Source of the DNA: an uncultured delta proteobacterium
Lineage (GTDB): Bacteria; Desulfobacterota; Binatia; Binatales; Binataceae
Assembly (NCBI GenBank): GCA_963808235.1
Contig: CAWEEQ010000004.1
Coordinates: 2,144,001 to 2,208,000, forward strand
Direction: 5' to 3'
Length of the DNA: 64,000 bases
Shown here: piece by piece, positions 3,647-57,019 of the stretch
How positions within the stretch are numbered: position 1 is the first letter of the stretch
Layout of the letters: the number at the start of each line of letters is the position of its first letter
Notes under the pieces: generated by a model
What the model saw: only the letters and a program-made list of their open reading frames with translations
What the model was told of the DNA's origin: nothing
Database searches by the model: none
Made by a program: the position numbers and the translations under genes

Positions 3647-5328
<1,682 letters not shown>

Positions 5329-5809: not shown

Positions 5810-5813
5810 TCTG

Positions 5814-6182: not shown

Positions 6183-6289
6183 CGTTCTGGGAAAGAACTC
6201 GAGCCGCGCAGGCTCAACTGCGCGATCGCGATCGGCTGTTCGCGGCCTGGCTCGGCGCCGCCGCGGTAGTTATCAAGGCGCGCCTCGAT

Positions 6290-8110: not shown

Positions 8111-8120
8111 GGAGTTTGCA

Positions 8121-8609: not shown

Positions 8610-8798
8610 TTCAAAAATCAGAAAACCCGTTCGGAACATTCGGGCTCATCGGCGCCTTTCGAGTTGGGCAGCCGCGGCACATCTTCGATCGAAATTAGAA
8701 CCATCGGAATTCGAAGCTCGACGGCCCATAACATCCGAAAATGGGCAAAAGTCTACAACTCGGCGTATAAACACGTGAATATGGCCCAAAAAACGGTG

Positions 8799-11256
<2,458 letters not shown>

Positions 11257-19100: not shown

Positions 19101-19437
19101 AACCCGACGTGGATTGTGCACGCGTCGCCGGGCGTGAGGGTGCCGACGCAGTCGTTGATTCGACGAAGGGCGGCTTGGCAACCACGCTCGAGATCGTAAT
19201 CGTCTTGCTGGTGGACTTATTGGTGACGTCGACATCCTGGGTTGGACTGTCGGTGCCGACGAAGACACTTCCGAACTGGAGCTTGTTGACGCCGCCGTAG
19301 CTGAGCTTGGCGCTGGCATCGAATAGCTCGGAAGCATCGCTGGATTGCGCCAGTGCCGGTCGCGCGAGCGCGGCGAGCACAAACATCATTGAGAAACTGA
19401 TCGCGACGACTGATCGCGTGAACGACTTGCAACGCAT
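16167..19437 (-). CDS. Large secreted surface protein: signal peptide, ASH/choice-of-anchor-D Ig domain, long Thr-Ala linker, Kelch/galactose-oxidase-like beta-propeller (frameshifts at about 19160 and 18417)
   Basis: AGGAGGA RBS; ATG 19437 MRCKSF...PALAQ; LQFGSVFVGTDS...NDCVGTLTPGDACTIHVGFDP...LVGTG across frames; repeated GKVLVxGG and AELYNP Kelch motifs; three ORF fragments join into one gene. Confidence 0.82.
18150..18990 (-). repeat. Thr-Ala low-complexity coding repeat with a 102-nt (34-aa) higher-order unit
   Basis: TSTSTGSATPTATATQTATATNTATATATNTATA repeated; near-identical DNA blocks start at 18609 and 18711. Confidence 0.9.
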
Positions 19438-27300: not shown

Positions 27301-27317
27301 GAGGGTGGGGGGAACGG

Positions 27318-41068: not shown

Positions 41069-41992
41069 TTATCGGGTCAACGTTGAGTCAGTTACCGCCT
41101 TCTTCTGAGTCTTCTGGCGCAGCGCGCCGGGCTTCCAAGATGAGAGATCTCTTCCCGTCAACCGTTCTAACTCTTTCGTCTCGGGAAGCATCATGTGCCG
41201 AATCTCGTCGGCGGAGGATTCGCTGAGCGGTTGATAGTCCTCCGCGAATAGCGGGCGCATCCGTTGTCCAACGCGCGACTCTTTAGTGCGACGTATCAGC
41301 GCCGATCCGCCGAGATGAGCGAGCCATTGAATTGAACCTATCGCAAGTCCGGAAATGGGGTTATCTCGCGCCCGGGACCATACCGACAATACCTTGACAT
41401 CGTTTACCGGCGATTTTTCCAGACCCACTCTCGGGACTCCGACGAAGTCGCAGACCTTGTTCAGGTAGACTTGAGGATCGGACATCAACTCTTCGTAAAA
41501 TAACACCAGCACGCGATCGCTGCCGAATGCGTCCTGCCACCTGCGCAGCTGGGTTGCGTAGCCGCAGAGATCCGATCCCCAATGCACCAGAGACAGCCAA
41601 TATCTGTCGAAATCAACAGATCGTTGTAGCAGGCGCCCCCTGCACATAAACCGATACTGCGAATACAAGCGCGTCGCCGGATCGCGAAGGGTGCAAATTA
41701 TCTTGCAGTTCGGAATGTCACGCTGAATCTTTTCTCGAGCTACGGCATTTGCAAAGTAAGACGGCGCAACCTCGCCGCAATGGAACTCTGGCGGGGCATC
41801 CTTGAAAAAATCAGCGTACCACTTCAGGCCGAGATGGTACCGCAACTCGAAAAATTGCGTCTCCTTCTCGGCGGGCAGGCATACGTGATCGCGCAGCGCC
41901 TCGTGCAGCCAGGTCGTTCCAGTGCGGGGCGGTCCGACGTGTATAAAGTCTGGAAGGCGTAGAGGCTTTCCGTTGCCAGCTTCGATATCCAT
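41069..41992 (-). CDS. PAPS-dependent sulfotransferase 1
   Basis: 5'-PSB loop GPPRTGTTWL, KETQFF and 3'-PB LRDPATRLYSQY motifs; ATG 41992 preferred over GTG 42058. Confidence 0.9.
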   Translation of the reverse strand: MDIEAGNGKPLRLPDFIHVGPPRTGTTWLHEALRDHVCLPAEKETQFFELRYHLGLKWYADFFKDAPPEFHCGEVAPSYFANAVAREKIQRDIPNCKIICTLRDPATRLYSQYRFMCRGRLLQRSVDFDRYWLSLVHWGSDLCGYATQLRRWQDAFGSDRVLVLFYEELMSDPQVYLNKVCDFVGVPRVGLEKSPVNDVKVLSVWSRARDNPISGLAIGSIQWLAHLGGSALIRRTKESRVGQRMRPLFAEDYQPLSESSADEIRHMMLPETKELERLTGRDLSSWKPGALRQKTQKKAVTDSTLTR

Positions 41993-42017
41993 AAGCGTTT
42001 GTGCAGTCCGTACCGTG

Positions 42018-42953
42018 TTATCCAGAGAGTGACCGAACCTCCCCACGACGGTCGTCAATTATCCGTCCGGCCGAGGACTTCCAGCTCGAAAGGTCTCTGC
42101 CAGTAATTCGTTCAAGCTCCTCGGTTTCAGGGAGCATCATAGCGCGGATCTCCTCAGCCGATTCCCGACTGAGGGGCGGGAAGTCCTCGACGAAGGGCCG
42201 CCGCATGATTTTCCATAGCGCAGTACGCTGGCCGAGTTTTATCAATGGACCCGCGCCATGGCGAGATACCCAATCGACAGCCTCGACGGTGCGACGGGCA
42301 ATCGCGCTGGCGCGGGCGGCCGCGGGGGCCGAATATACCTTCGCAGCTCCGACTCTGGACTGATCCAGCGCAATGCGCCGCGCTCCGATAAAGTCGCAGA
42401 CCCGGTCCAGATAGCCTTGCGGATCCGAACTCAGATCTTCGTAGAACAGCACCAGTACGCGCGGATTTTCCAAACGTCGCTTGCCAGCGCTTGAGGTGAG
42501 TGGCGTAGCTGCACAGATCCGCGCCGCAGTGGATCTGGAAGCGCCAATAGCCGTCGAAGTCATCGATTCACAGGGCGGCGCTCCGATCGAAGCAGCCTAT
42601 AGAGGGAGTAGAGCCGGGCCGCCGGGTCGCGAAAAGTGACAATTATTTTGCAGTCAGGAATGTGGCATTTGATTCTTTCCCGCGCGATCGCATTGGAGAA
42701 ATAGGTGGGACCCATCTCTCCCGCCGGGAACATCGGCCGGATAGTCGCCGAACAGATTGCAGTACCACTCGACTCCGCGGTCGTAGCGGGCATCGAAGAA
42801 TCGGGTTTCCTTTTCACTCGGCAATCCGATGTGGCCCATCAATACCTCGTGCAACCAGGTCGTAGCCGTTCGAGGTGGGCCGACATGGATGAAACTGGGC
42901 AGTCGCGATCCTTTTCCGTTTCGCATTTCCCCTGAAGTCATAGTGTATGGCAC
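42018..42953 (-). pseudogene. PAPS-dependent sulfotransferase 2, frameshifted (probably a sequencing artefact)
   Basis: Fragments in different frames: GPPRTATTWL/KETRFF; GEMGPTYF...RDPAARLYS; VLVLFYEDL...TGRDLSSWK; colinear with sulfotransferase 1. Confidence 0.82.
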
Positions 42954-42954
42954 A

Positions 42955-44998
42955 TCAATCTATCTTGTAAACGTGAGCCTGAAATGGCGCGTAGGTATCT
43001 TTGAATCGAGAGCCGCCTTGGTCGGGACGCGATTGAACGATTCTCGCCGTCCACTGAGACCGTGTGAGCGGGCCGCCGCAATGTAAAACTAGCATCGACA
43101 CTGTCACCGCTGTGATTGTACGAAATAAGGTAGCGGCTTCCGTCCTTGAGATCCTTCTCCTTGGTAATCACGGTACCGGTCGCCGAATTGGCGGAGAGCA
43201 CGGGGCTGTCGGGCGCGAGCAGCATCGGCTCAAGCGCACTAATTCCCTCGGTCACGTTGACCAACTCATCGTAGCGTTGCTGGCGAAGGACCGGATCGCG
43301 TTTAGGGCCCCAGTCGAGTCCGCGCAGTCCGTATGACCAGTAAAAGACTCCGCGCGCGCCTTCGGTGATCGCCATCCAGCTCATGTCGTGGAGCTCTTGC
43401 TCGGTGGGAAAGTGCGACAGCGAATTCAGCCAGAAAAACTGGATCACCGTCCACACCGGCCGCGCGCCATGAACCGCGCCGACGACCTTTCGAGTCAGAT
43501 CGCCGACATAGCTCTCGGGATAGCGGCTGCCGAGAACATAAGGATCGACTCCGAGTACGTCGACGGTGTCGCGCCAGAACTGGTATTCGTTTGGGATAAT
43601 TTTCTACCGCAAAGGTGATGCTGCCGGGGTCGTATTTGTTTGATCAGGCCGTATTGATGGAACGTCCGCGGCTGCCGCTCGCTGGCGCACTCGTCGCAGG
43701 TGTAATAGCCGACGACGCGCGAATCGTCGGCCAGTCCTTTGGCGTACTGAGCGATCACATCGTCCGCGCTGACGCCCCCGCTTCGGCCCATCGCGGATAT
43801 GCGCGCATCTCCGGAAAAAACGCGCTCACGGTCGCCAGGTAGAAGATGCCGAACGGCTCCATCGCCTCGGTGTAAGGATAGGATAACATCGGCGCGGCCG
43901 TTGGCGAGAAAATAATTAATCATCAGATTGATCGGCGCCTTGGATATCGCCGTCAATCGCGGAGTGATAGAAATCGGGTCTCAGCCCAAAGCCAGTCGTA
44001 TCGTACAGTCCGATCACAAATCGCGGCCGGCCGCCCATGTGAATGATATTGTCCGAATCGATCCACGCCTTCATCGTGGCGCGGGTCGCGCTGCTGACCT
44101 TGACGATCGTGTAGGACGATGGCGTGAAGATTCGCTTGTCGCCGGCCCCTTCCAGAGATCCCTGCAGCCGATATCGTCCGGGCGGCAAGGCTGCCCATGT
44201 CGACGGTCGCGACGCGTCGAGCCATCGGCCGGCGGCGACAGCCGATTGGTCGTAAGCACTTTTCCGCCCGAATCCATCACTTCGAGCACGACGTGAAGCT
44301 GCGCGATGGTTGTATCGGCAGGCGGATTAACATCGATTGCGACTCGTGCCACCTGGCTCTGCGTCGCTGAACATCATTCCGCGATAATTCGGATACAGCA
44401 GATAGGTTTCCAGCGGCGCGGGAATCTCGCGGCCCAGAAAGAATTTTCTGAACCATGACGTTCCAGCGACCGGCCCTACAGTCTCCGCGCGGAAGGAACC
44501 GACGCTGCCGTCGGCGAACGACGGCGTGCGCTTTCACCGACGGTGGTCCAGTCGGTCGTGCCAGCAAGAACCGCCTTGGTCATCGCCCATTTCTTCGCGG
44601 AGGCTTCGAGCAGACGGATTCGGGTGCCGCCGCGCCGCTTTGGCCGGAGTGGTCGTCTGAGTTTTGATTTCAGCCGAGATCGTGTAGAGACCCGGTGGGC
44701 ATTTGAACGCGTTCTCCGCAAAAGGGAACGGCGTGGCGCACGGCTGGTTCAGCTTCAGGCTGGCGATATCGCCACTGCCTTCGAGGTGAAGCAAGCAGGG
44801 TCGACACCGTCCAACCCTGAAGCCCGGCGCGCAAGTCGCCGTTGATCAGAAGATTCGGCCCCAAGGTGTACCCCGTTTCCGGCGCATCGAGGCCTCCCGT
44901 AGCGATGTCATCACCATATCCAGAGCCAGTTGGCGTGATCATCGAGAAGCCTGACGACAGATCAATGCAATAGCCACTCGACTAGTCAGTCTGTGCAT
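42955..44998 (-). pseudogene. Secreted CBM + glycoside-hydrolase-like protein, paralog of 60714-63275, with multiple frameshifts
   Basis: Fragments GGLDAPETGYTLGPNLLINGD, MKAWIDSDN...FVIGLYDTT, APINLMINY, GYYTCDE and WTVIQFF...LHDMSWMAITEGARGVFYWSYG match the intact paralog in order. Confidence 0.8.
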
Positions 44999-45042
44999 AG
45001 CTTGACAGTGCCGAGGTAATACTTTCGAGATCCCATCGTTGA

Positions 45043-45875
45043 TCAGGAAGTGGTAGTGGTTGCGATGAGGAAGAATCGCGCCTCGACCAGCGGCGAGCTG
45101 TTCCGAGAATGGACTAAAGCTATTGAGTTCCGGACTACCCATCCAGAGATGATACCCAAGCCCTTTAAGCGAATCGGTTATGGATTTCACTGATCCGTCG
45201 AATTTTTCAAGTCCGCACCCGACATGCATTTCGAAGAAGCAATCCGGCCGATAACGCGAGAGCGTATCGGCCGCTCCGCGCATAACTTTCGATTCGAATC
45301 CCTCGACGTCCACAAAGAGAACGTCGGGGGGCCCATATCGCCGCGTAAGCTCATCGACGCTGACACTGGGCACGGCGATTTTTCCCCAGGCGCCGCTGCC
45401 GTCGTCAACCTGTCCGTTCGCGCGGCAATTGAATTCAACTGGGTCCGAGGTATCGGACACGGCGGCGTTGATCACATCGAGGTTGCGCGCGTCGTTCAGT
45501 CGGCAATTTCGGATTGCGGCTTCATAGTTGTGCCGGCTCGCCTCGACCGCGACCACCTTTCCGGTCGCGCCGACAAATTTTGCTAGGATCATCGCGATGA
45601 GACATTGAAACGCGCCGCAATCGAACACGGTGGCGCCCGGACGTAGACGATGTTGCGCCAGGAACGACATCTCCGAGCGGAATTTCGGTCGAGTCGCGAT
45701 CGTACCAGCTCTTTGCGGTCGGATCCGAGATCCACAAGTCGAACTGATGGCCCGCTCTCGACCGGCGCACCTGGTAAGGTCGAAAACGGCGAAGTGCCCA
45801 ACGATAGCCCGCCACCCGGATTCGGTTCGCGACGGCCGGTGGAAGCAGCGATTTGGCTGCGCTCCTGATACTCAT
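45043..45875 (-). CDS. FkbM family methyltransferase (frameshifts near 45675 and 45090)
   Basis: PGATVFDCGA, GKVVAVEAS, NAAVSD and VDVEGFESKVMRGA motifs; N-terminus MSIRSAAKSLLP in another frame. Confidence 0.82.
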
Positions 45876-46048
45876 ACCGGTTGAGCCACTGTCATATTCG
45901 CTGGAAGCTTTGCAAACATCGTGCGGCCATCGCAGCGACTGTCCTAAGAGATCGAGTCGATCAGTATCGGTTCTGATGACAAGGTCAGAGCTTGATCACG
46001 TATAGGACAGAAGCAAGACTGCCGTAGCGCTGACCTGACGCGCCAGGA

Positions 46049-47485
46049 TCAGGCCGTTGTCCCCCTTGATACCCGCCGTCCGACGGCTGCCTTCTTGAGT
46101 ATGGCAGTAACGCGCAAACGGTGGCGGGAGGCCACTCTGTAAAGATCTCGTACACGCCCGCGGATAAGATATACATAGAGGTAGCCGGTGATCTGCAGCA
46201 GCTCCATCTTGCGACGTGATAGATGGTCCAGCTCGACGGCATTACCAATCGTCTTGTTGTAGTCTTCCCAGTCGGTGGAGAGCTTCCTGTATCCGCCCTC
46301 TCCTTTGACCGCCATCTCCCAGATCTCTGTTCCAGGATACGGCACCATGATGCCGAAGGCGGCACTCTTCGCGTTGAGCTCCCCGGCAAACTTGATCGAA
46401 TGCCACGCGGTCCTTACCGTCTCGCCGGGATGCCCGATTATGAAAAACGCCAGGAAGTTAAGTCCCGCTTGATGGAACGCGTCGGCTGCGGCTTTGATCT
46501 TTGCTTTAGTGACGCCTTTATTCATTGCGGCCATGATCTTGTCGTCGCCGCTCTCGACCCCCAGTCCCACCTCGACGCACCCGGCCTGCTTCATGAGTTT
46601 GACGAGTTCGAGGTTGATCGTGTTCGCGTGCACCATCGCAGACCATCGGAGTTTCAATCCGCGGGCAATCACCTCGTTGCAGATATCGGCGACGTGCTTC
46701 CGATTAACCGTGAAGGTCTCATCGTGGAAGGGAAACGTCTCGACGCCATACACCTCTGCATTGCGCTGAATCTCATCTGCGACATGTTTCCCAGTGCGAA
46801 GACGGACCGACTGTCCATATGGACGGCTGCAGAAGTTGCAGGAAAACGGACACCCGCGCGATGACATCACCGGGAGCAGTTTGGCGTATTTCCGAAATCC
46901 TTCCTGATCGTAGAGATGCCAGCCGGCGAAACCGAGTTCGTTCAGGGTCGGGGGAATTGATCCGCGCCCGGCCTCGACGATCTCGCCGTTCGGACGACGG
47001 TACCAGACTCCCGGAATGGTTGGCTGCCTTTCGCCGGCGAGAACGGCGGTGACCAGATCGGCGAACGCAACTTCCCCTTCACCGACTACCAGGTAGTCAA
47101 ATCCGGGAAATTCCTCGATAGTTCGCTTTGGCAGAAAGGATGCGTGAAACCCACCGAGCACCATCACAGTATCGGGCAACTGTTCTCGAACCCTTTGCGC
47201 GATGCGATGCGATGTTCCCACCATATGCGTGAATGCGCTGAACCCAACGATCCTGGGCTTGGCCGCGACGATGCGCTGGACGGTCTGATCCACGCTAAGG
47301 CGCTCCAGCTTGCCGTCAATAAGCAGCGGCCGGATCCCTGAGTGCTGCTCGAGCCAGCCACCGACGTACGCGATGCCAATCGCGGGGAAGTTGGGTCGGT
47401 CATAGACTTCCTCGCGAATGACCGCTGCAGGCGGAAAAACCAACACGACTTCAAAGGTTTTTTCGGAATCTGGCAAACCTGACAT
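46049..47485 (-). CDS. B12-binding domain radical SAM protein (class B methylase-like)
   Basis: N-terminal cobalamin-binding domain (GGFHAS, GEGE); SSRGCPFSCNFC; GVESG, FIIGHPGET and PYPGT motifs. Confidence 0.93.
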   Translation of the reverse strand: MSGLPDSEKTFEVVLVFPPAAVIREEVYDRPNFPAIGIAYVGGWLEQHSGIRPLLIDGKLERLSVDQTVQRIVAAKPRIVGFSAFTHMVGTSHRIAQRVREQLPDTVMVLGGFHASFLPKRTIEEFPGFDYLVVGEGEVAFADLVTAVLAGERQPTIPGVWYRRPNGEIVEAGRGSIPPTLNELGFAGWHLYDQEGFRKYAKLLPVMSSRGCPFSCNFCSRPYGQSVRLRTGKHVADEIQRNAEVYGVETFPFHDETFTVNRKHVADICNEVIARGLKLRWSAMVHANTINLELVKLMKQAGCVEVGLGVESGDDKIMAAMNKGVTKAKIKAAADAFHQAGLNFLAFFIIGHPGETVRTAWHSIKFAGELNAKSAAFGIMVPYPGTEIWEMAVKGEGGYRKLSTDWEDYNKTIGNAVELDHLSRRKMELLQITGYLYVYLIRGRVRDLYRVASRHRLRVTAILKKAAVGRRVSRGTTA

Positions 47486-47626
47486 CAGAATTACTCCCCT
47501 CGATTTCAGCCGGAAATCTGCACTTCCGACCCCCGCCTGAGTCCCCCCTCATAATGCCCAGATTCTGCCGCAACCGCAACCGAAACAGCGAAATTGACCG
47601 CGTAATTCCTGACGTCTACAGCACGT

Positions 47627-47866
47627 TTACTGCGCCTGCGCAGTAATCACTTCAACGATTTTTTCAACGCTCACCATACGTTCGGTCTGATCCGGTGAGA
47701 ATTGGCGGCCGAACTCCTGTTCGAGACTGACCACTATGTTCACTTGGGCCAGCGAATCCCATTCCGGATGTAACTGCGGCGATGATTGCTCGGTAATCGA
47801 TGCAAACGGCAGCGTCGTCATCTCGGCCACAATTCCGCGAACCCGGTCCAGCACCGAATCAGGCAT
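47627..47866 (-). CDS. Acyl carrier protein
   Basis: 79 aa, acidic; WDSLAQV phosphopantetheine site; overlaps the fkbH stop. Confidence 0.9.
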   Translation of the reverse strand: MPDSVLDRVRGIVAEMTTLPFASITEQSSPQLHPEWDSLAQVNIVVSLEQEFGRQFSPDQTERMVSVEKIVEVITAQAQ

Positions 47867-49745
47867 GAGAAATCGCTCCTTCAGTCACGCATTCGATCCA
47901 GGTCGGCGATTCCATCTTCAGACTCAGATCGTATTCGTAGAGCAGGCCGGCGTTCTCCTCGCGAACGAGCCGGAAATGACGGTTGGGATAGAAGTCTCTG
48001 GCCGGAGCGTTGCGAGCGGTCGGTACGAACCAGCCTTGCAGCCGGCGCGCGCCGCGCTTGGCGCAATCCGCCGCTACGTGGGATAGAAAGGCGGTCTCGA
48101 TCGTACGTCCCATCGCGCGACAACTCAGCATGAAACTGTCGATCTCACATGCCTGACCGGCTTGGGAACAGATCGCGATTCCGACCAATCCGTAGTCGCC
48201 CAGGCGATCAGACGCCGCTAGCGTGTATACCCTCCAGCCCTCGCGCGAGACCAACTCGGCGATCGTTTGTTCGCTGTATCGCTTGGTCGTGAGGTTGAAC
48301 TGATTCGTCTTCTGAGTAAGTTGAGCGACCCGGCCCAAAGTCTCCGCACGCATCGTTCCAATAGTTACCCGGATGTTAAGAGACCGATAGTAGTCTTCCA
48401 AACTCAAAGCACTGGTCTTGAGTGCGATGCGCTGTTGCTCGGCCTGGTAGTGAGATGTGCGCACCTTGTCTTCCGCGGAAATCGCAAGCCGTTCAAATAC
48501 CGGTGCCTCGCGCAAGGCGGTCGCGTAGCCCGCTGGGTCCGAGGGCAGATCGATTACGTACACTTCGGGCGCAAGCGCGCGGACCTCACCGCGTTCTTTG
48601 GGGTCGTCGTCCACAAACGCGAGTGCGGCGGAGTCGATGTTCAGTTCGACCGCAATCTCACGCAAATTTTGCGCCTTGTTGTTCCAATTGATCCGGGTCG
48701 CGGCAAAATGATGCGGCCGCAGGAGCATCGCCGGATGCCCGCTCAGCATCTCGAGCGCCTCCTGCGGGTTATTCTTGCTGCAGACCGCAAGAATTACCCC
48801 ACGCTTATGCAAATCGAGCACGGTGCGCTGGAATTCCAGGAATGCATTGCCCGGATAGTCGTCGCCGAGTTTTATTCCGCTCGGCCCGTCTTCACCGATA
48901 ATTCCGCCCCACACAGTGTTGTCGAGATCCAGGACCAGCGCCTTGCATATTCGCCCCGCGAGCGGCAGCAGAATACGCATGTACTCCGCGGCGAGAAACG
49001 GCAGCGCATCGGCGCGTAGCGGCAAATGGATGCTCAGCCATTTGGCTTCGTCGTACCATCGCAGACTCCCAAATCTGACCATCGCGGCATCGTAGTCGAA
49101 TACATAGACGCCTGCGTTCTCGGAGCAAATTCGCACTATTTCGCGGTTGATCGTTCGCACCGCGTCCACCTGTCCGACATTCTTCTGGGAGTCAATCACT
49201 CCAGCGCTCGGAAATGGCGGCGCGGCGAAGGTATTCAGCACCACATGGGCCTGACTATGCGACCGGACTGCCTCGATAAACCCCTGCAGTTCGGAGCGCG
49301 TCCGGTCGATAAGACTATCGAAGTCGGAGGAGCCCATCTCGACAGAATTGCTCCACAGCTCCGGCAATACATCGCGCGTCTCGGTCGCGAGCCAGACGAG
49401 GTCGGGCTCGAAGCGATAAAGGGCGCCCGCCGGATCGCGCACCTCTTGCGCGTAAGTGTTGAAACCTCCAACCTGCACGACCAAGTCGAGGCCGTGAGAG
49501 ACCGCTTCGGCGCGAACGAGCGGAACCAGCGGCTCGATCGTGTACGAGCGCAAGATTGCGACTCGCAAGCACGGAAGATCCAAGTCGGTTTTGATGCGTT
49601 CAAATTGCTTGAGGACGAACTGTGCGTTCGAAAGCGTTCTCGAGGAACGATAGAGATCGGACATCAGCCGATGAGCCACAGCATAATTGCGGGACTCGAT
49701 CGCCTCGAGAATCCGCTCGCGATCGGTAGTGACGCTATTGCTCAT
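47859..49745 (-). CDS. fkbH: FkbH-like HAD-IIIC glyceryl-ACP synthase with N-terminal extension
   Basis: LDLDNTVWGG, CSKNN, FVDDDPKE, TQKTNQFNLT, DRLGDYGLVG and FMLSCR motifs. Confidence 0.92.
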   Translation of the reverse strand: MSNSVTTDRERILEAIESRNYAVAHRLMSDLYRSSRTLSNAQFVLKQFERIKTDLDLPCLRVAILRSYTIEPLVPLVRAEAVSHGLDLVVQVGGFNTYAQEVRDPAGALYRFEPDLVWLATETRDVLPELWSNSVEMGSSDFDSLIDRTRSELQGFIEAVRSHSQAHVVLNTFAAPPFPSAGVIDSQKNVGQVDAVRTINREIVRICSENAGVYVFDYDAAMVRFGSLRWYDEAKWLSIHLPLRADALPFLAAEYMRILLPLAGRICKALVLDLDNTVWGGIIGEDGPSGIKLGDDYPGNAFLEFQRTVLDLHKRGVILAVCSKNNPQEALEMLSGHPAMLLRPHHFAATRINWNNKAQNLREIAVELNIDSAALAFVDDDPKERGEVRALAPEVYVIDLPSDPAGYATALREAPVFERLAISAEDKVRTSHYQAEQQRIALKTSALSLEDYYRSLNIRVTIGTMRAETLGRVAQLTQKTNQFNLTTKRYSEQTIAELVSREGWRVYTLAASDRLGDYGLVGIAICSQAGQACEIDSFMLSCRAMGRTIETAFLSHVAADCAKRGARRLQGWFVPTARNAPARDFYPNRHFRLVREENAGLLYEYDLSLKMESPTWIECVTEGAISHA

Positions 49746-49829
49746 TGGAAGTTGCTCAACAAGCCGTCACCGCACCTGGGAAAAACAACTCACAGTGAGC
49801 CTGTCGGGTAAGCGGTAAACTCAACCGGA

Positions 49830-50357
49830 TCAGCCTTTGTCCCACTCGCCGTGTGCTTTTCCAACCACTCTCGCCGGCGATCCGACAACTACTACTCCGG
49901 CGGGAACGCTCCGAAATACCACAGAACCGGCGCCAACTATCGCGCCGGCGCCGATGCTGACCCCCGGCGCGATGATTGCGCCCGTACAGACATACGAGCG
50001 GGCCCCAAGAGTTACCGGCTTCAGCAAATCGCTTCTCACGTTGTGGCATTCGATGATTACACGCGGCGCAACGCAAACGCGATCTTCGAGCGTAATCATC
50101 TCGGGAAAAACCGGATCGATGAGGCAATCGCGGCCAATAAAATGTCCGCTGCCACGGAATTTCACCCCCATCAGACGATACGCGAGCAGCCGCATCCTGG
50201 CCGGCAACACGCTGACGAAATACGGGACCGTCATGAGAACCAGCCGATGCGCGAGCGAAGACTTCCGAACCGCGCTATATTCCTTCAATCCCATACCGGG
50301 CCGCCACGCATCGTCGCCGGAAGCTCTGCTGTTGGTTTGGTTCATCAAAAAGAACAA
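49830..50357 (-). CDS. Hexapeptide-repeat (LbH) acyltransferase
   Basis: IGRDCLID and IAPGVSIGAGAIVGAGSVV...VVGSPARVV motifs; true start may be downstream. Confidence 0.85.
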   Translation of the reverse strand: MFFLMNQTNSRASGDDAWRPGMGLKEYSAVRKSSLAHRLVLMTVPYFVSVLPARMRLLAYRLMGVKFRGSGHFIGRDCLIDPVFPEMITLEDRVCVAPRVIIECHNVRSDLLKPVTLGARSYVCTGAIIAPGVSIGAGAIVGAGSVVFRSVPAGVVVVGSPARVVGKAHGEWDKG

Positions 50358-50455
50358 CGCGCGTGGTCATCCTGCCAGAGTGATCGCGCGACTCTCAAGA
50401 GCCTTGCCTCCTACGCCCTTGCCGCCGAAGGAATCGCCGGTGTACGTTGCGCCTG

Positions 50456-51265
50456 ATGAGCAGTCCATCGAATCTTGAAACTCCCGCAATCCGGCTTTAT
50501 CTCGATCTCTTGAAACGCTCGTTGACTAATACGCTGTTCGAAACGGAACCCGACGCCGATCAGGACAACGAACTGCGCTTCGTGCACGGCTTCATCCATC
50601 ACTACATCAACGGTTCCGCGGTTTCGATGCTGCCGCTGAAAAGATTCGACCATCTGCAATCCTGCGTCGAAGACGTTCTCGCACATCACATTGCCGGCGA
50701 TCTCATCGAAGCGGGAGTTTGGCGCGGCGGCGCGACCATCTTCATGCGTGCGGCGCTCAAGGCTTACGGCGCAACCGACAGGACCGTATGGGTGGCCGAT
50801 TCCTTCGAAGGGCTGCCGGAGCCCGATGCCGAAAAGTTTCCCCTCGAAGCGAAGGCGCATCAGGGGCCGGTTATGACCAAGACCTACAAGCATCTCGCGG
50901 CAAGTGTCGAGGAGGTTCAGCGAAACTTCCGCGCCTACGGGATGCTCGACGATCAGGTTCGGTTCCTCAAAGGTTGGTTCAAGGACACGCTTCCGAATGC
51001 CCCGATCGAAGCACTCTCGATCATGCGACTGGACGGCGACTTCTACGAATCGACCAGAGACGGACTGGTAAATCTCTATGACAAATTGTCGATCGGCGGA
51101 TACGCGATCATCGACGACTACGGCGAGACTTCGTGGACCTATTGCCGGAAAGCAGTCGATGAATTTCGCCAGGAACGTGGGATCGAGGAGCCGCTGGTCC
51201 GAGTCGACTCGAAGTGCCATTTCTGGCGCAAACTGCGCCACGCACCGAAGCCGCTGCCTGCGTAG
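50456..51265 (+). CDS. TylF/MycF/NovP family O-methyltransferase
   Basis: YLDLLKRSL, GDLIEAGVWRGG, DSFEGLP, KGWFKDTLP, RLDGDFYEST and IIDDY motifs. Confidence 0.93.
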   Translation: MSSPSNLETPAIRLYLDLLKRSLTNTLFETEPDADQDNELRFVHGFIHHYINGSAVSMLPLKRFDHLQSCVEDVLAHHIAGDLIEAGVWRGGATIFMRAALKAYGATDRTVWVADSFEGLPEPDAEKFPLEAKAHQGPVMTKTYKHLAASVEEVQRNFRAYGMLDDQVRFLKGWFKDTLPNAPIEALSIMRLDGDFYESTRDGLVNLYDKLSIGGYAIIDDYGETSWTYCRKAVDEFRQERGIEEPLVRVDSKCHFWRKLRHAPKPLPA

Positions 51266-51397
51266 GGTTTCTTCCCAGAGATCTGCCGTCCCCAGCGTGG
51301 GATCGAAGCTCCCAATGAAGAAAGCTCTCCGCGAGAATCGCAACTCTGTACGACGCGGCGATTCACGTAGGCACACGTCGGGCATTGCGTGCGCAGT

Positions 51398-51427
51398 TTG
51401 ACAACGAGGTCGTAACACAGGTAAATT
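51398..51427 (+). promoter_or_regulatory. Putative sigma70 promoter for the priming transferase
   Basis: TTGACA-N18-TAAATT. Confidence 0.45.
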
Positions 51428-51519
51428 CTGTCGAGCTTAGGCGAAGTAGATGTGTAATTGACGCTCTAAGGCTCAATTAGGATGCCGCTGCCCGATAGGA
51501 TGCAGGCGGTGGGGGTGAG

Positions 51520-52953
51520 TTGAATCCGAAAAATACCAGGGAAGTGGCGGAGCGAATTGCCGATGCTATCTGCATTTTCTTCGGCTATTTGATCGCCACA
51601 GAGATCCCGTTCGCTCTGCGCCTGGACAGGATTCAGATAATCCCGCACGGCAGGGCTTCCGCCGCGCAATCTGAGTATTCTGCCCTTTTAATTCTAGCGA
51701 TTTTGTCGTGGCTGACCCTGACTGCATACACAGAAACCTATCGGCCGCACCGCACAGAACGCCTGAATTTCCTGGTCCGTCGCCTGATACAGACGTTGCT
51801 GATCTGGTCTCTGGTGACGGTCGCGGCGATCTTTGCACTGAAATTTGAATATCTGAGCCGGCAATTTATCGCCTATTTCATGGGCGCGTCGATGGTTTTC
51901 ATCTTCATCCGGCAACTAGGAACCACGCTTTTGCTGCGCAACTTGCGCCGCTCAGCGCATAAGTGGCGGACCGCGGTGGTGATTGGCGACGAGGCGACTT
52001 GCGAGCACTTCGCGGGACTTCTGACCGCCACCGATACTATGGGCTATGAGCGGGTAGTCGTTCAGCCGACCAAGCGGGTCCTCAATTCGAACGGCAATGG
52101 GGCGGAACCAGGATACGACTTCGATGCGGCTTCGCTCGCGGAATTTGATGACATCTACCTAATCGGTGCAAACGACGGGGCGGAGTCTCCGGCGGGCGCA
52201 GACGGTGTCCTCACCCTCCTCAAGCGGGGCAAATCCGTGCACATCATACCGAGCCTCCTGGATACCCGGCTGTTTCGCCAGTCGCTCGGCGACGTCGCCG
52301 GCATTCCGGTACTCTCGGTGAGCAAGGGTGAGCTGACACCCTCTCAAGCGGCTCTGAAGCGCACCGTCGATTTCATCCTGTCGACGCTACTGTTGATCGT
52401 TCTATCGCCGGTGATCGGTGTGATCGCGCTCGCAATCAAATTTACCTCGGCGGGACCCGCGCTGTTCCGTCAGAAGCGGCTGGGTCTCAAGGGGGAACCG
52501 TTTACTCTCTATAAGTTCCGCACCATGCATGCTAACGCCGAGCAGATCCTGAAGGACTCGCCGGCGCTTTATGACAAATACCTGAAAAACAACTTCAAGC
52601 TTCCCAAGGGCGAAGATCCGCGCCTCGCTCCGCTCGGGAGATTACTGCGTGCCACCAGCCTCGATGAGCTGCCGCAACTATTCAACGTGTTGATCGGTGA
52701 GATGAGCCTGGTCGGGCCGCGCCCGATCGTGCCCCATGAGGCGGTTCAATACGGCGATCTAGCGATGCTGTTCATGTCCGCCAAACCAGGGCTGACCGGC
52801 CATTGGCAGGTCAGCGGCCGCAGCGAGATCGTGGAGTACCAAAAGCGGGTCGAATTGGACCTCGAATACATCCGGGACCAATCGCTGGGCAAAGACATCG
52901 AGATATTGCTGCGGACTGTTCCGGCAGTGCTGCGGCGCAAGGGCGCCAACTAG
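51520..52953 (+). CDS. Priming undecaprenyl-phosphate glycosylphosphotransferase (WcaJ/WbaP/ExoY family)
   Basis: N-terminal TMs; [33 protein letters not shown] and [14 protein letters not shown] motifs. Confidence 0.95.
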
Positions 52954-53038
52954 GCGGACTGTCTTCGTCGCGGCGTCAACTCTTTTTCTCAGCTCATTGC
53001 TATGGTACGAGTTCTTTATACGGAGGATTAGAGCAATC

Positions 53039-53458
53039 GTGGTCAAACTATCACTCCGTCAATGCTGCCTGCTCGCGTGTTTTGCGATTGTTGCCGGATT
53101 CTTCTTCCCGGCGCCTTCTTCTCTGTCCGCCGCCCGTGCGCCAGGCCACCCGGTCGGCCTCAACGTCAGCCTGCGGGACACGGGCAAGACAGTCGCGCTC
53201 CCAGTCGGCGAGCAACTAGTGGTCACGCTTCCGATCACACGCAATTACGCGGACGATACCTGGTACGTGTCGAGCAATTCCGGCGGCGCGCTGAAACTGA
53301 TAGCGGGGCCTGACGAGAAGCACGGGCGAAACTGGACACCTTGGAAGCCCAGCTCGCAGGTGTTCTACTTCCGACGTGAAGCCCCAGGGCGTGTAAATTT
53401 GGTGCTGGAAAGGAAGTACTGGTCGCGGCCGATGATCCTCGACGTAGTCGATCGGTAA
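53039..53458 (+). CDS. Small secreted protein, divergent chagasin/I42-like Ig fold
   Basis: GGAGGA RBS, signal peptide; DTGKTVALPVGEQLVVTLP...W...FYF...PG pattern; lacks the NPTTGY loop. Confidence 0.55.
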   Translation: MVKLSLRQCCLLACFAIVAGFFFPAPSSLSAARAPGHPVGLNVSLRDTGKTVALPVGEQLVVTLPITRNYADDTWYVSSNSGGALKLIAGPDEKHGRNWTPWKPSSQVFYFRREAPGRVNLVLERKYWSRPMILDVVDR

Positions 53459-53566
53459 GCACTCGATGGCGGCAGTTGCAGTTTGACCACTGGCCTCATC
53501 CTTGATCCTGCTTTGATCCTTGATACTGCTTGATGCGGCCCCTATAAGAGGGAGAGATACCGGACT

Positions 53567-54994
53567 GTGCTCTTCAATTCACTCGGGTTTCTGGTATTTT
53601 TACCCCTCGTCCTTTGTGTCTATTCGCTGCTGAACCATCGCTGGCAGAATTATTTTCTGCTGGCGGCAAGCCTGTTCTTCTACGCCTGCTGGGATTGGCG
53701 ATTCGTATTCCTTCTTCTCTTAACCGTGGTGGTGGACTTTTACGTCGCGCGCTCGCTCGAATCGATGCAACAGCGCGGCGCAGCGCCCGCGCGGCGCAAG
53801 CTGGTGCTTGCCGTTAGCATGGCGACAAACCTCGTCGTGCTGGGATTTTTCAAGTACTACGACTTCTTTTCGACCAGCCTGCAGACCCTGTTGAGTAGCC
53901 TGGGGCTTGGCGTTGGCATTCACACCCTGAACATCATTCTGCCAGTGGGGATTTCCTTCTATACGTTTCAGTCGATGAGCTACACCATCGACGTGTATAG
54001 GGGCGAACTGCCTGCGACGAAAAGTTTTCTCGATTTCACATTGTTCGTTTGCTTCTTTCCCCATCTGGTAGCCGGACCGATAATGCGCGCGGTCGACATG
54101 CTGCCGCAGGTAATTCAGCCGCGAAAGGTCAGCCGTCAGCAAATCCATGACGGCCTTTATCTGATGCTTTGGGGCTACTGGAAGAAGGTTTTCGTTGCCG
54201 ACAACATGGCCCCGGTGGTCAATCATATCTTCTCCCTTCCACGAGCAACCGGGTTCCAGACGCTTTTGGGTGTGTATGCGTTTGCGGTTCAAATCTACTG
54301 CGACTTTTCGGGATACACGGATATTGCGCGCGGGGTCGCCAAGCTGATGGGATTTGAGTTGATTCTCAACTTCAACCTTCCCTACTTCTCCAGGAGTCCA
54401 CGAGAATTTTGGACCCGCTGGCATATCAGCCTGTCGAATTGGCTGCGCAACTATCTTTATATCCCACTGGGCGGCAACCGTAATGGCGTGTCCAAGACCC
54501 AGCGAAACCTGATGATCACGATGGTGCTGGGAGGGCTATGGCATGGCGCTGCGTGGAATTTTGTGTTCTGGGGTTTTTACCATGGGCTTCTATTGGTGAT
54601 TCACAGGATGCTCGAGCCGCTACTGGCTTTTGTCAAAGCGGCCTCACGCGCTGGGAATTTTATTCTGATATCTCTCGAGATCTTTCTGATGTTTCAACTC
54701 ACCTGTTACGGATGGTTGCTTTTCCGCGCCGAGTCGTTCGCTCAGATCCGGGATATGAGCGCGGCCCTGATGCATCCTATGGACAGTGTCGATCTGGCGT
54801 TGGCGTGGAAGGTGGCCTTCTTCCTCGTCCCTCTACTGGCTATCGAGTTTATCCAGTATATGTCCGGCAAGTGGAATCTCCTTGACTTTTCGTGGATGCC
54901 GATGGAGCTGAAGTCGGCCGCGTTGGCCGTCGTCGCATACTGTGTGCTGTTCCACGCGGCCCAGCCCCAGGCATTCATTTACTTCCAGTTTTGA
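53567..54994 (+). CDS. MBOAT O-acyltransferase (AlgI/PatA/DltB-like) with C-terminal FIYFQF motif
   Basis: MLFNS, LPVGISFYTFQ, FPHLVAGPI, DFSGYTDIA, FWTRWHISLS, LYIPLGG and GLWHGA motifs. Confidence 0.95.
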   Translation: MLFNSLGFLVFLPLVLCVYSLLNHRWQNYFLLAASLFFYACWDWRFVFLLLLTVVVDFYVARSLESMQQRGAAPARRKLVLAVSMATNLVVLGFFKYYDFFSTSLQTLLSSLGLGVGIHTLNIILPVGISFYTFQSMSYTIDVYRGELPATKSFLDFTLFVCFFPHLVAGPIMRAVDMLPQVIQPRKVSRQQIHDGLYLMLWGYWKKVFVADNMAPVVNHIFSLPRATGFQTLLGVYAFAVQIYCDFSGYTDIARGVAKLMGFELILNFNLPYFSRSPREFWTRWHISLSNWLRNYLYIPLGGNRNGVSKTQRNLMITMVLGGLWHGAAWNFVFWGFYHGLLLVIHRMLEPLLAFVKAASRAGNFILISLEIFLMFQLTCYGWLLFRAESFAQIRDMSAALMHPMDSVDLALAWKVAFFLVPLLAIEFIQYMSGKWNLLDFSWMPMELKSAALAVVAYCVLFHAAQPQAFIYFQF

Positions 54995-55005
54995 GCTGAC
55001 TAATC

Positions 55006-56139
55006 GTGTCCTCTGGATCGATGCACAAGACAATCTACATTCACCTCGCGTTGAGCGCGCTGGTAGCTCTCCTGGTGCTTGAGTTATGCACGCGCTTTGA
55101 CGATCTCATGTCCTTCGGAGCACCCATCTGGCAGGCCTATAGCGCGAACAATCTGTTTGAGTATGACTCACTGGGTAAGCGCGGCAAGCCTTATTCCAGC
55201 TACAAGAAGTGGCGGCTCAACAGCCTTGGGTTTCGCGCTCCTGAGGTGCAGCAGAACCGCTTCCGCATCGTATGTCTCGGCGAGTCTGAGACGTTTGGTT
55301 TGTACGAGCAGCCCGGTAATGAATACCCAGCGCAGCTCGAGCGAGATCTGAACCACTGGGCGGCACGCCGGGTCTTCCAGGTGGTCAATGCCGCCATTCC
55401 CGGACAGACGCTCGTTTCCACCGCGCATCGGGTGCCAGAGATGGTGGCCAGGACGAAGCCGCAAATCGCTGTGATCTATCCGTCTCCCTCCTACTACATA
55501 TGGCTACAAGGCCTGCGCTCCGGCGGGGAGCTTGGCGTTGTGCCAAGGAAGCAAAGGTTTCAATTGCGGCTTGCTGACAATCTCTGGAACCTCACTAAAG
55601 ACGTGCTTGCGATGCTTCCACGGCGACTTCGAATTGCATCATATGAATTTCTGATCAAACGACAAGTGTCGGCGCTGGGTACCCCAGTTATGGAACAGGT
55701 GCCAGACCAGAACATCGAGCGGTACAAGCAGGATCTGTTGGCCCTGATCGATGCGTTGCGAGCAAGCGGCGTCGAGCCCGTATTAGTGACTCACGCTACT
55801 TATTTCGGCACCAATTGTAGGGCGCCGGATCGCCTGACCCTGGCGGAGTGGCGCAAGCTGTATCCGATGCTCAAGGAGAACGGATTCCTCGACATGGAAG
55901 AACGAATGAATGCAGCGATGCGCAGCCTTGCCGCCGCCGATCATGTCCTCTTAGTGGATATGGCAAGTGAGATGCCGCCTGGCCCAAAGTATTTTGCCGA
56001 CATGGTCCATTTCACGGATGAAGGCGCGACGGTGATGGCTGCAAAGCTCGCTCAGGGTCTTGAACCTGCCATCGAGAGCCGCGGCTTCCAATTGACCGGT
56101 CCGAGCAGGATCGACGAGCCGGCAAAGTCCGGCGCCTAG
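55006..56139 (+). CDS. Membrane-anchored SGNH/GDSL family protein (MBOAT partner)
   Basis: N-terminal TM; NSLGFR, CLGESETFG (GxS block I), VVNAAIPG and DMVHFTDEG (DxxH) motifs. Confidence 0.85.
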   Translation: MSSGSMHKTIYIHLALSALVALLVLELCTRFDDLMSFGAPIWQAYSANNLFEYDSLGKRGKPYSSYKKWRLNSLGFRAPEVQQNRFRIVCLGESETFGLYEQPGNEYPAQLERDLNHWAARRVFQVVNAAIPGQTLVSTAHRVPEMVARTKPQIAVIYPSPSYYIWLQGLRSGGELGVVPRKQRFQLRLADNLWNLTKDVLAMLPRRLRIASYEFLIKRQVSALGTPVMEQVPDQNIERYKQDLLALIDALRASGVEPVLVTHATYFGTNCRAPDRLTLAEWRKLYPMLKENGFLDMEERMNAAMRSLAAADHVLLVDMASEMPPGPKYFADMVHFTDEGATVMAAKLAQGLEPAIESRGFQLTGPSRIDEPAKSGA

Positions 56140-56146
56140 CGGTCAT

Positions 56147-57019
56147 TCAGGCTTTCGGGCGGAATGCTCTTTTGGCGCGGCTCAGGACTCGCCGAGTCAG
56201 CGTCCGCTCCCCTGAGGCGGGCCAGCATTGCGGTCCTGCGGTCCACATGTAGACCCATTCGGATTCGGAGCCCGGCGGGACTTCTTCGCATGCAGCCAGC
56301 GCCGGATTGGCGGCGATCGCGTCTGGCGACGCGAACAGAACCATATTCTGGCGATACCACCAGGCCAGACGCCTTTCGTCGCGAAGTTTCGGTCGGAACG
56401 GATCGAGCATCCTATGTCCGCACTCCTCGAAGGCTTTTCGCCAATAGGAAAGCGGCTGGCAATTGATGTGTCCTCCGCCCCCCTGACCCGGCGGCGCCGC
56501 CGAAAAGAGGACTTGCGGCGCCGCGGAAGCAAGCTGCCGTACCAAGTGCCGCGAATTGCGCGCGGGTAGATGTTCGGCGACCTCGAGGCAGATGGCTAAA
56601 TCGAATCGACCCGGCGGAATCTCGAACTCGCCGCTCAATTCGGTGGGACGAAAGCAATCGGCCGGAAACAGCAGCGTCGATGGCTTGATATAGTCGCCAT
56701 CCATTCCAACTATTTTCTCTATCCCCTGCGCTCTGAATTCGCTTAGCCATGCACCGCGGCCGCATCCGACGTCCAGGACACTCGACGGATGAGTCAACGC
56801 CACCAACATCGGCACCACGATCCGAGCGGAATCGAGCGCGCGATCGCCCTCGTACATGTCTTCTGCGTAATAGTTTGCCAAGTCCTTGCGCATCGCGTAG
56901 GTCCGAATTCTCTGTATCAGTTCTGTCGCAGAGCGAGCAACTCGATAGCTATTTTCCGGCAGCGCGAGCACCGCATCTGAACTCTGAACCACAGTTCCGA
57001 CATCATCGTTGGCAAACAA
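56147..57019 (-). CDS. Class I SAM-dependent methyltransferase
   Basis: SVLDVGCGRGAWL, LEVAEHL, FSAAPPGQGG.GHINCQ and WWYRQN motifs; start uncertain. Confidence 0.88.
   Translation of the reverse strand: MFANDDVGTVVQSSDAVLALPENSYRVARSATELIQRIRTYAMRKDLANYYAEDMYEGDRALDSARIVVPMLVALTHPSSVLDVGCGRGAWLSEFRAQGIEKIVGMDGDYIKPSTLLFPADCFRPTELSGEFEIPPGRFDLAICLEVAEHLPARNSRHLVRQLASAAPQVLFSAAPPGQGGGGHINCQPLSYWRKAFEECGHRMLDPFRPKLRDERRLAWWYRQNMVLFASPDAIAANPALAACEEVPPGSESEWVYMWTAGPQCWPASGERTLTRRVLSRAKRAFRPKA

Follow-up and report, generated by a model that had tools for sequence, protein, structure and literature searches.

We analysed a 64,000-nucleotide stretch of DNA from an uncultured delta proteobacterium of the Binataceae (GenBank assembly GCA_963808235.1, contig CAWEEQ010000004.1, positions 2,144,001 to 2,208,000; hereafter the window), focusing on adjoining genes for an FkbH-like protein, an acyl carrier protein (ACP) and a left-handed β-helix (LbH) acyltransferase. 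These genes are part of a Wzx/Wzy-type exopolysaccharide (EPS) locus that also encodes a B12-binding radical S-adenosylmethionine (SAM) enzyme, an FkbM-family methyltransferase, and a membrane-bound O-acyltransferase (MBOAT) paired with an SGNH protein. The positions of these features and of their neighbours are given in Table 1. An earlier interpretation made from the DNA letters and their open reading frames (ORFs), referred to here as the sequence-only reading, had named these genes, and ORF listing combined with family scans recovered every one of them in its place. All five genes of the minus-strand run that it had described, from LbH to FkbM, are present, although FkbM is read in two frames rather than one.

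Table 1. Features of the window discussed in the text, with supporting family matches or context
Feature	Coordinates	Strand	Evidence or context
Wzx/Wzy-type EPS locus (~35 kb)	24951-60158		ORF contents; encloses all genes under study
~685-aa protein homologue, signal/transmembrane N-terminus	42958-45022	-	intact in congeners; at least three frames here
FkbM-family methyltransferase	44939-45917 (C-terminal ORF 44939-45670; N-terminal part 45621-45917, other frame)	-	TIGR01444
B12-binding radical SAM enzyme (class B type), 478 aa	46049-47485	-	PF02310 71 bits, PF04055 76 bits
ACP, discrete, 79 aa	47627-47866	-	overlaps FkbH stop by 8 nt (translationally coupled)
FkbH-like protein, 628 aa	47859-49745	-	TIGR01686 and PF21211 FkbH_N
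LbH (hexapeptide) acyltransferase, WcaF-like, 175 aa	49830-50357	-	Hexapep match; 84 nt upstream of FkbH
TylF-type O-methyltransferase	50447-51265	+	PF05711 286 bits; divergent from LbH
Priming polyprenyl-phosphate glycosylphosphotransferase	51520-52953	+	TIGR03025 363 bits, over cut-off
153-aa ORF	52997-53458	+	no match in family scans; kept in congeners
MBOAT, 475 aa	53567-54994	+	PF03062 82 bits; last six residues FIYFQF
SGNH protein, membrane-anchored, 377 aa	55006-56139	+	PF13472; starts 11 nt after MBOAT

The FkbH-like protein, its carrier protein and the LbH enzyme

The FkbH-like protein scored 289.3 bits against TIGR01686 (curated cut-off, 146.65) and 62.8 bits against the HAD-IIIC model TIGR01681 (cut-off, 35.75). 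Its domains are arranged in the order FkbH_N, HAD-IIIC phosphatase and C-terminal GNAT-like domain. Alignment with 20 relatives of 48-85% identity revealed that D273, D275 and T277 of the segment DLDNT (residues 273-277), which corresponds to the HAD DxDxT motif, were invariant, as were S541-C542-R543 within the sequence LSCR. The DxDxT motif and the conserved cysteine both have roles in glyceryl-ACP synthases. An AlphaFold model of the protein (pLDDT 80.7) comprised three parts: the N-terminal and HAD portion matched 3slr, the N-terminal part of Bacteroides fragilis BF1531 (Foldseek E = 1e-27, 366 columns), and the C-terminal portion had a GNAT fold according to Foldseek, in agreement with the sequence match.

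The ACP matched the NCBIfam ACP models at 36 bits (E = 4.5e-9), under their cut-off, and no Pfam match was obtained at 1e-3. Its WDS motif, W36-D37-S38, which contains the predicted attachment serine, was invariant in 24 relatives. FkbH and an ACP are known to carry out glyceryl loading in polyketide and tetronate pathways (FkbH/FkbJ of FK520, OzmB, Tmn16/ChlD1). Based on homology to these FkbH-type loaders, the window enzyme would make glyceryl-ACP from 1,3-bisphosphoglycerate. The LbH protein, encoded immediately before it, contains hexapeptide repeats; among the NCBIfam families, WcaF matched it best, with 53 bits (cut-off, 192).

The FkbH-like protein shares 35% identity over residues 61-628 (90% of its length) with one encoded by a plasmid cassette of Methylosinus trichosporium. 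The gene order of the cassette is β-ketoacyl-ACP synthase III (KAS III), FkbH-like, ACP, E2-like protein, monooxygenase, hydrolase and type I polyketide synthase (PKS). We take this cassette to be of the tetronate type, where glyceryl-ACP is the product of such enzymes. FkbH-like proteins built in the same way are found in polyketide/tetronate-type clusters and in fused PKS forms, as would be expected if the window pair acted in the making of a lipid or small natural product and its place in an EPS locus were due to chance. We regard this explanation as very improbable. Pfam scans of 49 window ORFs detected no PKS, nonribosomal peptide synthetase (NRPS), acyl-CoA dehydrogenase or 3-hydroxyacyl-CoA dehydrogenase domains; ketosynthase (KS) and KAS III were likewise not found in the window, and the FkbH clade to which the window protein belongs lies consistently among glycan genes in the 80 loci described below. 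The sequence-only reading had seen in these genes a polyketide-type loader recruited to a polysaccharide locus, with no PKS/NRPS and no FkbK/FkbI-type dehydrogenases in the window, and the scans bear it out on both counts.

Conservation of the core genes in the genus and beyond

Conservation within the genus was evaluated using 60 relatives and the window's own genome (G000), a sample that included 36 congeneric genomes besides G000. FkbH orthologues (55-85% identity) were present in five of these 36. LbH orthologues occurred in exactly the FkbH-bearing genomes and always adjoined FkbH (6 of 6, including G000). The five loci, L162-L165 and L002, are syntenic with the window. Their gene order runs from Wzy, GT4, GT2, a sulfotransferase, the ~685-aa protein, FkbM (not in L002) and a class I methyltransferase on the other strand to ACP, FkbH, LbH, methyltransferases, the priming transferase, the 153-aa ORF, further methyltransferases and GT2.

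None of the five syntenic loci contains an MBOAT, an SGNH protein or a radical SAM gene, and tblastn searches returned nothing at E < 0.1. A PF03062 search of the whole assemblies detected no MBOAT in four of these genomes (completeness 96, 85, 87 and 64%). The fifth genome, G025, has PF03062 matches, on contigs other than the one carrying the EPS locus. The syntenic loci keep the core genes and lack the MBOAT. The FkbH-ACP-LbH core thus does without an MBOAT in congeners, and both the MBOAT-SGNH pair and the radical SAM gene were added in the window genome specifically.

Beyond the genus, at least 7,829 proteins matched the FkbH search, and a pattern scan of species-representative genomes yielded at least 577 confirmed FkbH stretches, of which the best 80 loci were kept. 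In these loci, ORFs were called and searched with the window proteins, and the neighbouring genes were clustered. Among the matches listed, the closest FkbH was that of L002 (Candidatus Binatus sp.), with 85% identity. The genes around FkbH encoded sulfotransferases, enzymes of 3'-phosphoadenosine 5'-phosphosulfate synthesis, glycosyltransferases, polysaccharide deacetylases, NeuB, DegT aminotransferases and Wzc. Recruitment of FkbH-ACP to glycan loci is a general, widespread pattern.

Neighbour frequencies were determined in a full-flank set of 62 loci (61 and the window) having at least 3 kb upstream and at least 3.5 kb downstream of FkbH. In all but one of these loci (61), an ACP gene lay no more than 3.5 kb from FkbH. 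A GNAT-like gene directly followed the ACP in 37 and an LbH gene stood beside FkbH in nine; no locus contained both, and 16 contained neither. The usual partner of the pair is thus a soluble acyltransferase. Genes of the VOC/glyoxalase type were found near FkbH in 23 loci, a MaoC-dehydratase/short-chain dehydrogenase (SDR) fusion in 11, and a related radical SAM gene in two (the window and L005). An MBOAT lay within the flanks in four (the window, L017, L054 and L056).

The mutual exclusion of LbH and GNAT-like genes was significant by Fisher's test (p = 1e-4), in a set in which related genomes are not independent. The FkbH tree was therefore also examined. In a FastTree phylogeny built from 74 FkbH sequences, one clade (97% support) grouped the window with L002 and L050. 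An LbH neighbour is present in six of its nine rows, and these come from Binatota, Acidobacteriota and Armatimonadota; across the tree, the LbH-neighbour label changed at least four times. Moreover, in seven loci from several phyla, LbH lies directly upstream of FkbH on the same strand, at a distance of no more than 76 nt or overlapping it. These data fit LbH and GNAT-like enzymes being alternative users of the acyl-ACP.

The commonest order in Acidobacteria was sulfotransferase, VOC protein, FkbH-like protein, ACP and a ~376-aa protein (loci L004-L081; e.g. L022:12213-13343), an arrangement flanked by genes for a sulfotransferase and a CelD-like GNAT. The ~376-aa post-ACP protein (cluster 2) belongs to an uncharacterised family that is present in 32 loci and has no match in Pfam or NCBIfam. 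It was labelled GNAT-like based on an hhalign comparison with a cluster that has a weak Acetyltransf_9 match (probability 61.6%, E = 7.8e-5), on its feature neighbours in a protein atlas and on its position after the ACP.

In the proteobacterial loci L074, L078, L079 (e.g. L078:11969-13219), L226 and L228, the ACP is followed by the MaoC-dehydratase/SDR fusion. Such a fusion would be suited to turning glyceryl-ACP into a lactyl-type unit, as we presume from polyketide starter-unit chemistry. The last of these loci, on a Maritalea myrionectae plasmid, contains pseB, a fused 819-aa FkbH-like protein, an SDR, a DUF4910 protein and a NeuB-family synthase.

The MBOAT-SGNH pair, the radical SAM gene and other parts of the locus

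The sequence-only reading had pointed to an MBOAT ending in FIYFQF and coupled to an SGNH protein. This holds: the tail is present, and the PF13472 partner is encoded directly downstream. In 22 relatives of the MBOAT, H286, H326 and the tail F470-I-Y-F-x-F475 were invariant. The SGNH protein has an N-terminal hydrophobic helix as well as Ser and His blocks, the motifs GESET at residue 92 and DMVHF at residue 332, which were assigned by eye. Its orthologues follow the MBOAT in L082, L083 and L054 (244-269 bits).

The same reading proposed that the pair forms a Dlt-like relay. Glyceroyl-ACP, possibly C- or O-methylated by the radical SAM enzyme or FkbM, would dock on the MBOAT as DltC does on DltB and acylate the Tyr of FIYFQF, and the SGNH protein would then transfer the acyl group to the exported polymer. 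The neighbourhoods of the MBOAT family argue otherwise. Specifically, we collected 80 loci containing relatives of the window MBOAT (39-59% identity), 40 of them with full 10 kb flanks, and found FkbH or ACP in none of the 80. The closest MBOAT-SGNH pairs, in L082 (59%) and L083 (57%), stand alone outside polysaccharide loci, with no carrier protein or loader within approximately 7 kb. The genomes of five close MBOAT relatives all contain an FkbH-domain gene somewhere; the two are adjacent in L054 only. From the opposite side, an MBOAT lay within 10 kb in three of the 80 other FkbH loci, which resembles the background of 2 of 57 in unrelated EPS loci (the radical SAM set described below). Together with the congeners that carry the core and no MBOAT, these counts make the relay unlikely as an account of the window.

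The type of MBOAT points in the same direction. According to the available text of one source (PMC12148441), MBOATs with a fused C-terminal FXYXXF tail (PatA type) are acetyl-CoA users; DltB, which receives D-alanine from the carrier DltC, is without the two extra helices and the motif, both of which are supplied by the microprotein DltX; and the other MBOAT/SGNH pathways that it covers have no carrier protein. By its fused tail, the window MBOAT would belong with the acetyl-CoA users and act as an O-acetyltransferase, an argument made by class.

The radical SAM enzyme contains a CX3CX2C motif, CPFSCNFC, starting at residue 212 (C212/C216/C219). All NCBIfam equivalogs (BchE, HpnJ, PhpK and others) scored under their cut-offs, the best being BchE at 189 versus 481 bits. 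In 57 loci of its relatives, 31 of which are at least 48% identical to it, neither FkbH nor ACP was found. The relatives adjoin priming transferases (6), Wzc (7), Wza (4) and glycosyltransferases in polysaccharide loci, and no partner gene was conserved among these loci. The enzyme looks like an independent polysaccharide-tailoring gene that was inserted in the window genome.

Tailoring of ACP-bound glycerate by the radical SAM enzyme or FkbM, as the sequence-only reading had it, found no support in these neighbourhoods. In a version of this idea, the radical SAM enzyme would act on the ACP-bound unit, for example by C-methylation, in place of the class I methyltransferase of the congeners, yielding a different C3/C4 acyl group. 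Its gene does lie 141 nt after ACP on the same strand, in a slot that holds the opposite-strand class I methyltransferase in L162-L165 and L002. In addition, L005 (Thermodesulfovibrio) has FkbH, ACP, GT2 and a related radical SAM gene (147 bits). Nevertheless, such a gene occurs in only 2 of 81 FkbH loci, it is absent from the congeneric loci, and its relatives are found in polysaccharide loci without a carrier protein. We consider this version unlikely, slightly more so than the relay.

As a family, the radical SAM proteins (the window, L166 and L169-L199) share approximately 50% identity across Phycisphaerae, Rhodospirillales and Binataceae, and their genes are often located just after that of the priming transferase or Wza/Wzc. 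In a literature search that did not cover subscription journals, we found no description of a B12 radical SAM family from polysaccharide loci.

FkbM and the gene for the ~685-aa protein are both read in more than one frame. FkbM scored 96 bits against TIGR01444 (cut-off, 37.7), and tblastn with an intact congeneric FkbM placed the frame switch at approximately 45621-45673. The ~685-aa protein matches no Pfam family, and tblastn recovered its gene as pieces in frames -2, -3, -2 and -3. Both genes were compared with Logan contigs from four soil-metagenome runs (three studies) that are 95-99% or more identical to the window. Single-base length differences were observed at 12 listed places between 42564 and 45017, and at 22 in all. 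The difference at 43029 was seen in all four runs, and in three runs contigs that are 99% alike and span the FkbM frame change each contained one single-base gap. Over the radical SAM gene, there was no length difference (e.g. 528 identical bases). When the 12 listed differences alone were applied, no single open frame resulted. Pseudogene decay of the two genes had been considered and was withdrawn after these comparisons with near-identical short-read contigs. Since single-base length differences are dense at 42500-45900 and none occurs over the radical SAM gene, the broken frames are probably assembly errors or strain differences rather than firm pseudogenes.

The remainder of the EPS locus encodes Wza, Wzc, Wzy, Wzx, GT4 and GT2 glycosyltransferases, a FemAB-like GNAT, sulfotransferases and at least six methyltransferases, including three of the TylF type. 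Neither NeuB nor DegT genes were found in the window. Three plus-strand genes, for TylF, the priming glycosyltransferase and the 153-aa ORF, lie between LbH and the MBOAT. An orthologue of the TylF gene adjoins LbH in L002 (578 bits), and homologues of the 153-aa ORF adjoin the priming transferase in L162-L165 and L050, including congeners without an MBOAT. A 335-aa ORF at 50411-51418 on the minus strand was rejected as a gene, being a shadow of the TylF gene. A promoter and terminator scan of 44800-56300 gave counts no higher than those of shuffled sequence and was thus uninformative as to operon structure.

A 181-aa ORF at 42018-42563 with a partial sulfotransferase match adjoins a full sulfotransferase gene at 41069-42058 and may be a fragment or the remnant of a duplication. 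Upstream of the EPS locus, three proteins contain long collagen triple-helix arrays (Pfam Collagen, 130-210 bits; 1466-3145, 3629-5164 and 8875-11256), and a sulfatase is encoded at 6290-8110. The window also contains two very large minus-strand ORFs, one at 12128-16033 (1301 aa) with a weak YfhO match and the other at 16167-19382 (1071 aa) with Kelch repeats.

Proposed mechanism, alternatives and related systems

Based on gene content, motifs, fold, synteny and co-occurrence, we favour, by a modest degree, a reading of these genes as three modules: an LbH-FkbH-ACP core for glyceroylation and, as separate and recent additions, an MBOAT-SGNH system for O-acetylation and a radical SAM enzyme. 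With the same modest confidence, we describe the EPS locus of this Binatia-type genome as a mosaic of independent decoration modules. From these data, we infer that glycerate is the substrate, that LbH transfers it to a sugar acceptor and that the MBOAT draws on acetyl-CoA.

In the proposed pathway, the FkbH-like enzyme would take a glycerate unit from 1,3-bisphosphoglycerate, with its HAD domain removing the phosphate. The glyceryl group would be held on Cys542 of the GNAT-like domain and then passed to Ser38 of the ACP. The WcaF-like LbH, acting in the cytoplasm, would transfer the ACP-bound glyceroyl unit to a sugar hydroxyl (or amino) group, presumably in a nucleotide-sugar or an undecaprenyl-linked intermediate prior to export. 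Neighbouring methyltransferases such as FkbM may O-methylate the glyceroyl group. The MBOAT-SGNH pair would be a horizontally added system of the PatA/AlgI type, in which an acetyl group is transferred from acetyl-CoA to the Tyr of FIYFQF, to the serine of the SGNH protein and on to the exported polymer. Finally, the radical SAM enzyme would modify the glycan itself rather than the acyl group on the ACP.

A number of observations weigh against this three-module reading. The first group concerns the LbH enzyme. It resembles acetyl-CoA-dependent sugar O-acetyltransferases (WcaF and the maltose and galactoside acetyltransferases), and the LbH proteins found beside FkbH outside Binatia are only 26-44% identical to it, mostly over the repeat region. 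Within the genus, the co-distribution of LbH and FkbH is that of the whole syntenic locus, and LbH could be a plain acetyltransferase travelling with that locus. Furthermore, the 16 of 62 full-flank loci mentioned above have neither candidate transferase nearby.

The resemblance to acetyl-CoA enzymes and the 16 loci would be accounted for if FkbH and the ACP made a glyceroyl-type acyl-ACP that a different transferase delivers, LbH being an ordinary acetyl-CoA O-acetyltransferase. The other transferase might be the FemAB/CelD-like GNAT encoded at 27225-28376 or an enzyme that was not recognised. An Acetyltransf_6 protein recurs in 19 FkbH loci, and the window GNAT is a protein of this kind. Nevertheless, the profile of the recurring Acetyltransf_6 cluster matched no window ORF, and both the mutual exclusion of LbH and GNAT-like genes and the tight adjoining of LbH and FkbH in seven loci from several phyla argue against another transferase. 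Overall, we judge delivery by another transferase to be improbable, though less so than any of the other alternatives considered here.

A second group of observations concerns the added genes. In place of the methyltransferase that congeners have after the ACP gene, the window has the radical SAM gene, which could reflect a swap of tailoring enzymes on the same substrate. The MBOAT-SGNH and FkbH-ACP groups of the window are 3.8 kb apart in the same locus, as a relay would have it. Moreover, two loci elsewhere bring an MBOAT together with FkbH and an ACP. The acidobacterial locus L054 encodes, on one strand, an MBOAT (558 bits to that of the window, and among the three closest relatives seen), an SGNH protein, FkbH, an ACP and a GNAT-like protein. 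The GNAT-like gene is the usual candidate transferase after the ACP, which counts against the relay.

The other locus is on pSymB of Sinorhizobium meliloti (CP140948.1, 1053419-1072579; L224), where locus coordinates 4348-10236 comprise a same-strand run of five genes. The first encodes a VOC protein. It is followed by those for an MBOAT of 522 aa with FLYQGF at its end, for a membrane protein of 409 aa, for an ACP and, last, for an FkbH-like protein of 628 aa (TIGR01686, 284 bits). Capsule genes are located nearby. The FkbH query matched 40 Sinorhizobium records; the pSymB details are from one record. This MBOAT is a distant one, sharing 28% identity with that of the window. The 409-aa protein is annotated as a TonB-dependent receptor and gave no match in family searches. 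It showed no similarity to the SGNH family of the window type (hhalign probability 0.1, not significant), and GGS and DPGH motifs were noted in it by eye only.

As judged from its genes, the S. meliloti run resembles a Dlt relay in which FkbH is the loader. Since MBOATs with a fused tail are encoded next to an FkbH/ACP loader in both L054 and S. meliloti, the relay concept is plausible in nature, and the relay proposed by the sequence-only reading may exist elsewhere, for example on pSymB. We found no publication on the S. meliloti MBOAT-ACP arrangement in the literature searched, which did not include subscription journals. The organism is genetically tractable, which makes it suitable for testing the relay idea.

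The last point against the three-module reading comes from the literature. A search that did not cover subscription journals turned up no biochemical work on FkbH and its ACP from glycan loci, nor a biochemical result for any member of this FkbH clade, and mention of these proteins was at the level of annotation.

Extending the three-module reading beyond the window, FkbH and its ACP could be the loading half of a widespread carrier-protein route for glycerate-derived C3 acyl groups with interchangeable delivery enzymes, the window being an LbH-type member. We put this forward tentatively, with somewhat less confidence than the reading of the window itself. The acyl groups would be glyceroyl or, where the MaoC-SDR fusion follows, lactyl or pyruvoyl. 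Delivery would be by GNAT-like enzymes in most Acidobacteria, by LbH in Binatia and scattered phyla, and, in a few lineages such as S. meliloti with its pSymB, by an MBOAT and its membrane partner, which would amount to a true Dlt-like relay.

Glycerate-type groups are known from bacterial surface glycans. According to the available text of two reports, N-glyceroyl and 2,3-di-O-methylglyceroyl groups occur on pseudaminic acid (PMC5378307, PMC3068675), and the former described the genetic basis of glyceroyl groups as a major challenge in 2017 (PMC5378307). In Campylobacter jejuni, Cj1295 is required for such decoration (PMC3068675), and in a strain without the methylated decoration, the fkbH-domain gene cj1302 is a pseudogene (PMC7099621), again as given in the text available to us.

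If the wider proposal is correct, the FkbH-ACP pair would name the genetic basis of glycerate-type glycan groups that was described as open, and acyl-ACP would be a new kind of donor for WcaF-type LbH and also for GNAT sugar acyltransferases. The pair is found in the glycan loci of hundreds of species, and acyl decorations set the charge and hydration of surface polysaccharides as well as their recognition by phages and the immune system. In the window itself, the presumed single relay resolves into three modules of ordinary appearance; among them, little is understood only of the LbH-FkbH-ACP core and the orphan radical SAM family. The leads that follow are FkbH-ACP glycan acylation with interchangeable transferases, the orphan B12 radical SAM family of polysaccharide loci and the S. 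meliloti operon.

Comparison with known systems distinguishes the modules. The MBOAT-SGNH pair shares a fused tail, conserved histidines and a membrane-anchored SGNH protein encoded immediately downstream with PatA/PatB, AlgI/AlgJ-AlgX and WssH. Like the Dlt system (DltA, DltC, DltB, DltX and DltD), the window encodes an MBOAT, an SGNH-type protein and a small carrier in one neighbourhood. Unlike DltB, however, the window MBOAT carries the FXYXXF tail itself, and its lineage has no conserved linkage to a carrier protein or loader. The radical SAM enzyme resembles class B radical SAM methylases in having a B12-binding domain, a radical SAM domain and the CX3CX2C motif. In contrast to the named class B methylases, it reached no equivalog cut-off, and its orthologues are found in polysaccharide loci.

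The FkbH-ACP pair shares with the FkbH synthases of polyketide and tetronate pathways an over-cut-off FkbH domain, the DxDxT motif, the cysteine of the GNAT-like domain and an adjoining discrete ACP. It differs from the FkbG-H-I-J-K pathway in that the FkbK/FkbI/FkbG set and any KS or PKS are missing from the window and the neighbours are glycan genes. Whereas polyketide systems pass the acyl group to a ketosynthase, that of the window presumably goes to a sugar by way of an LbH or GNAT-like transferase.

Also comparable are the Pse5Am7Gra-containing glycans of Tannerella forsythia and those of C. jejuni 11168 (cj1295, cj1302). As far as these systems are described in the text available to us, they likewise have an fkbH-domain gene and methyltransferases in a glycan locus and carry a glycerate-type acyl group on a surface glycan, which for the window is predicted from the genes. 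The T. forsythia and C. jejuni decorations are, in the same text, amides on the nonulosonic acids of glycoproteins, whereas the window is without NeuB and DegT and its LbH is of the O-acetyltransferase type. The Maritalea gene run described above echoes the C. jejuni pairing of Cj1295, which is aminopeptidase-like, with cj1302.

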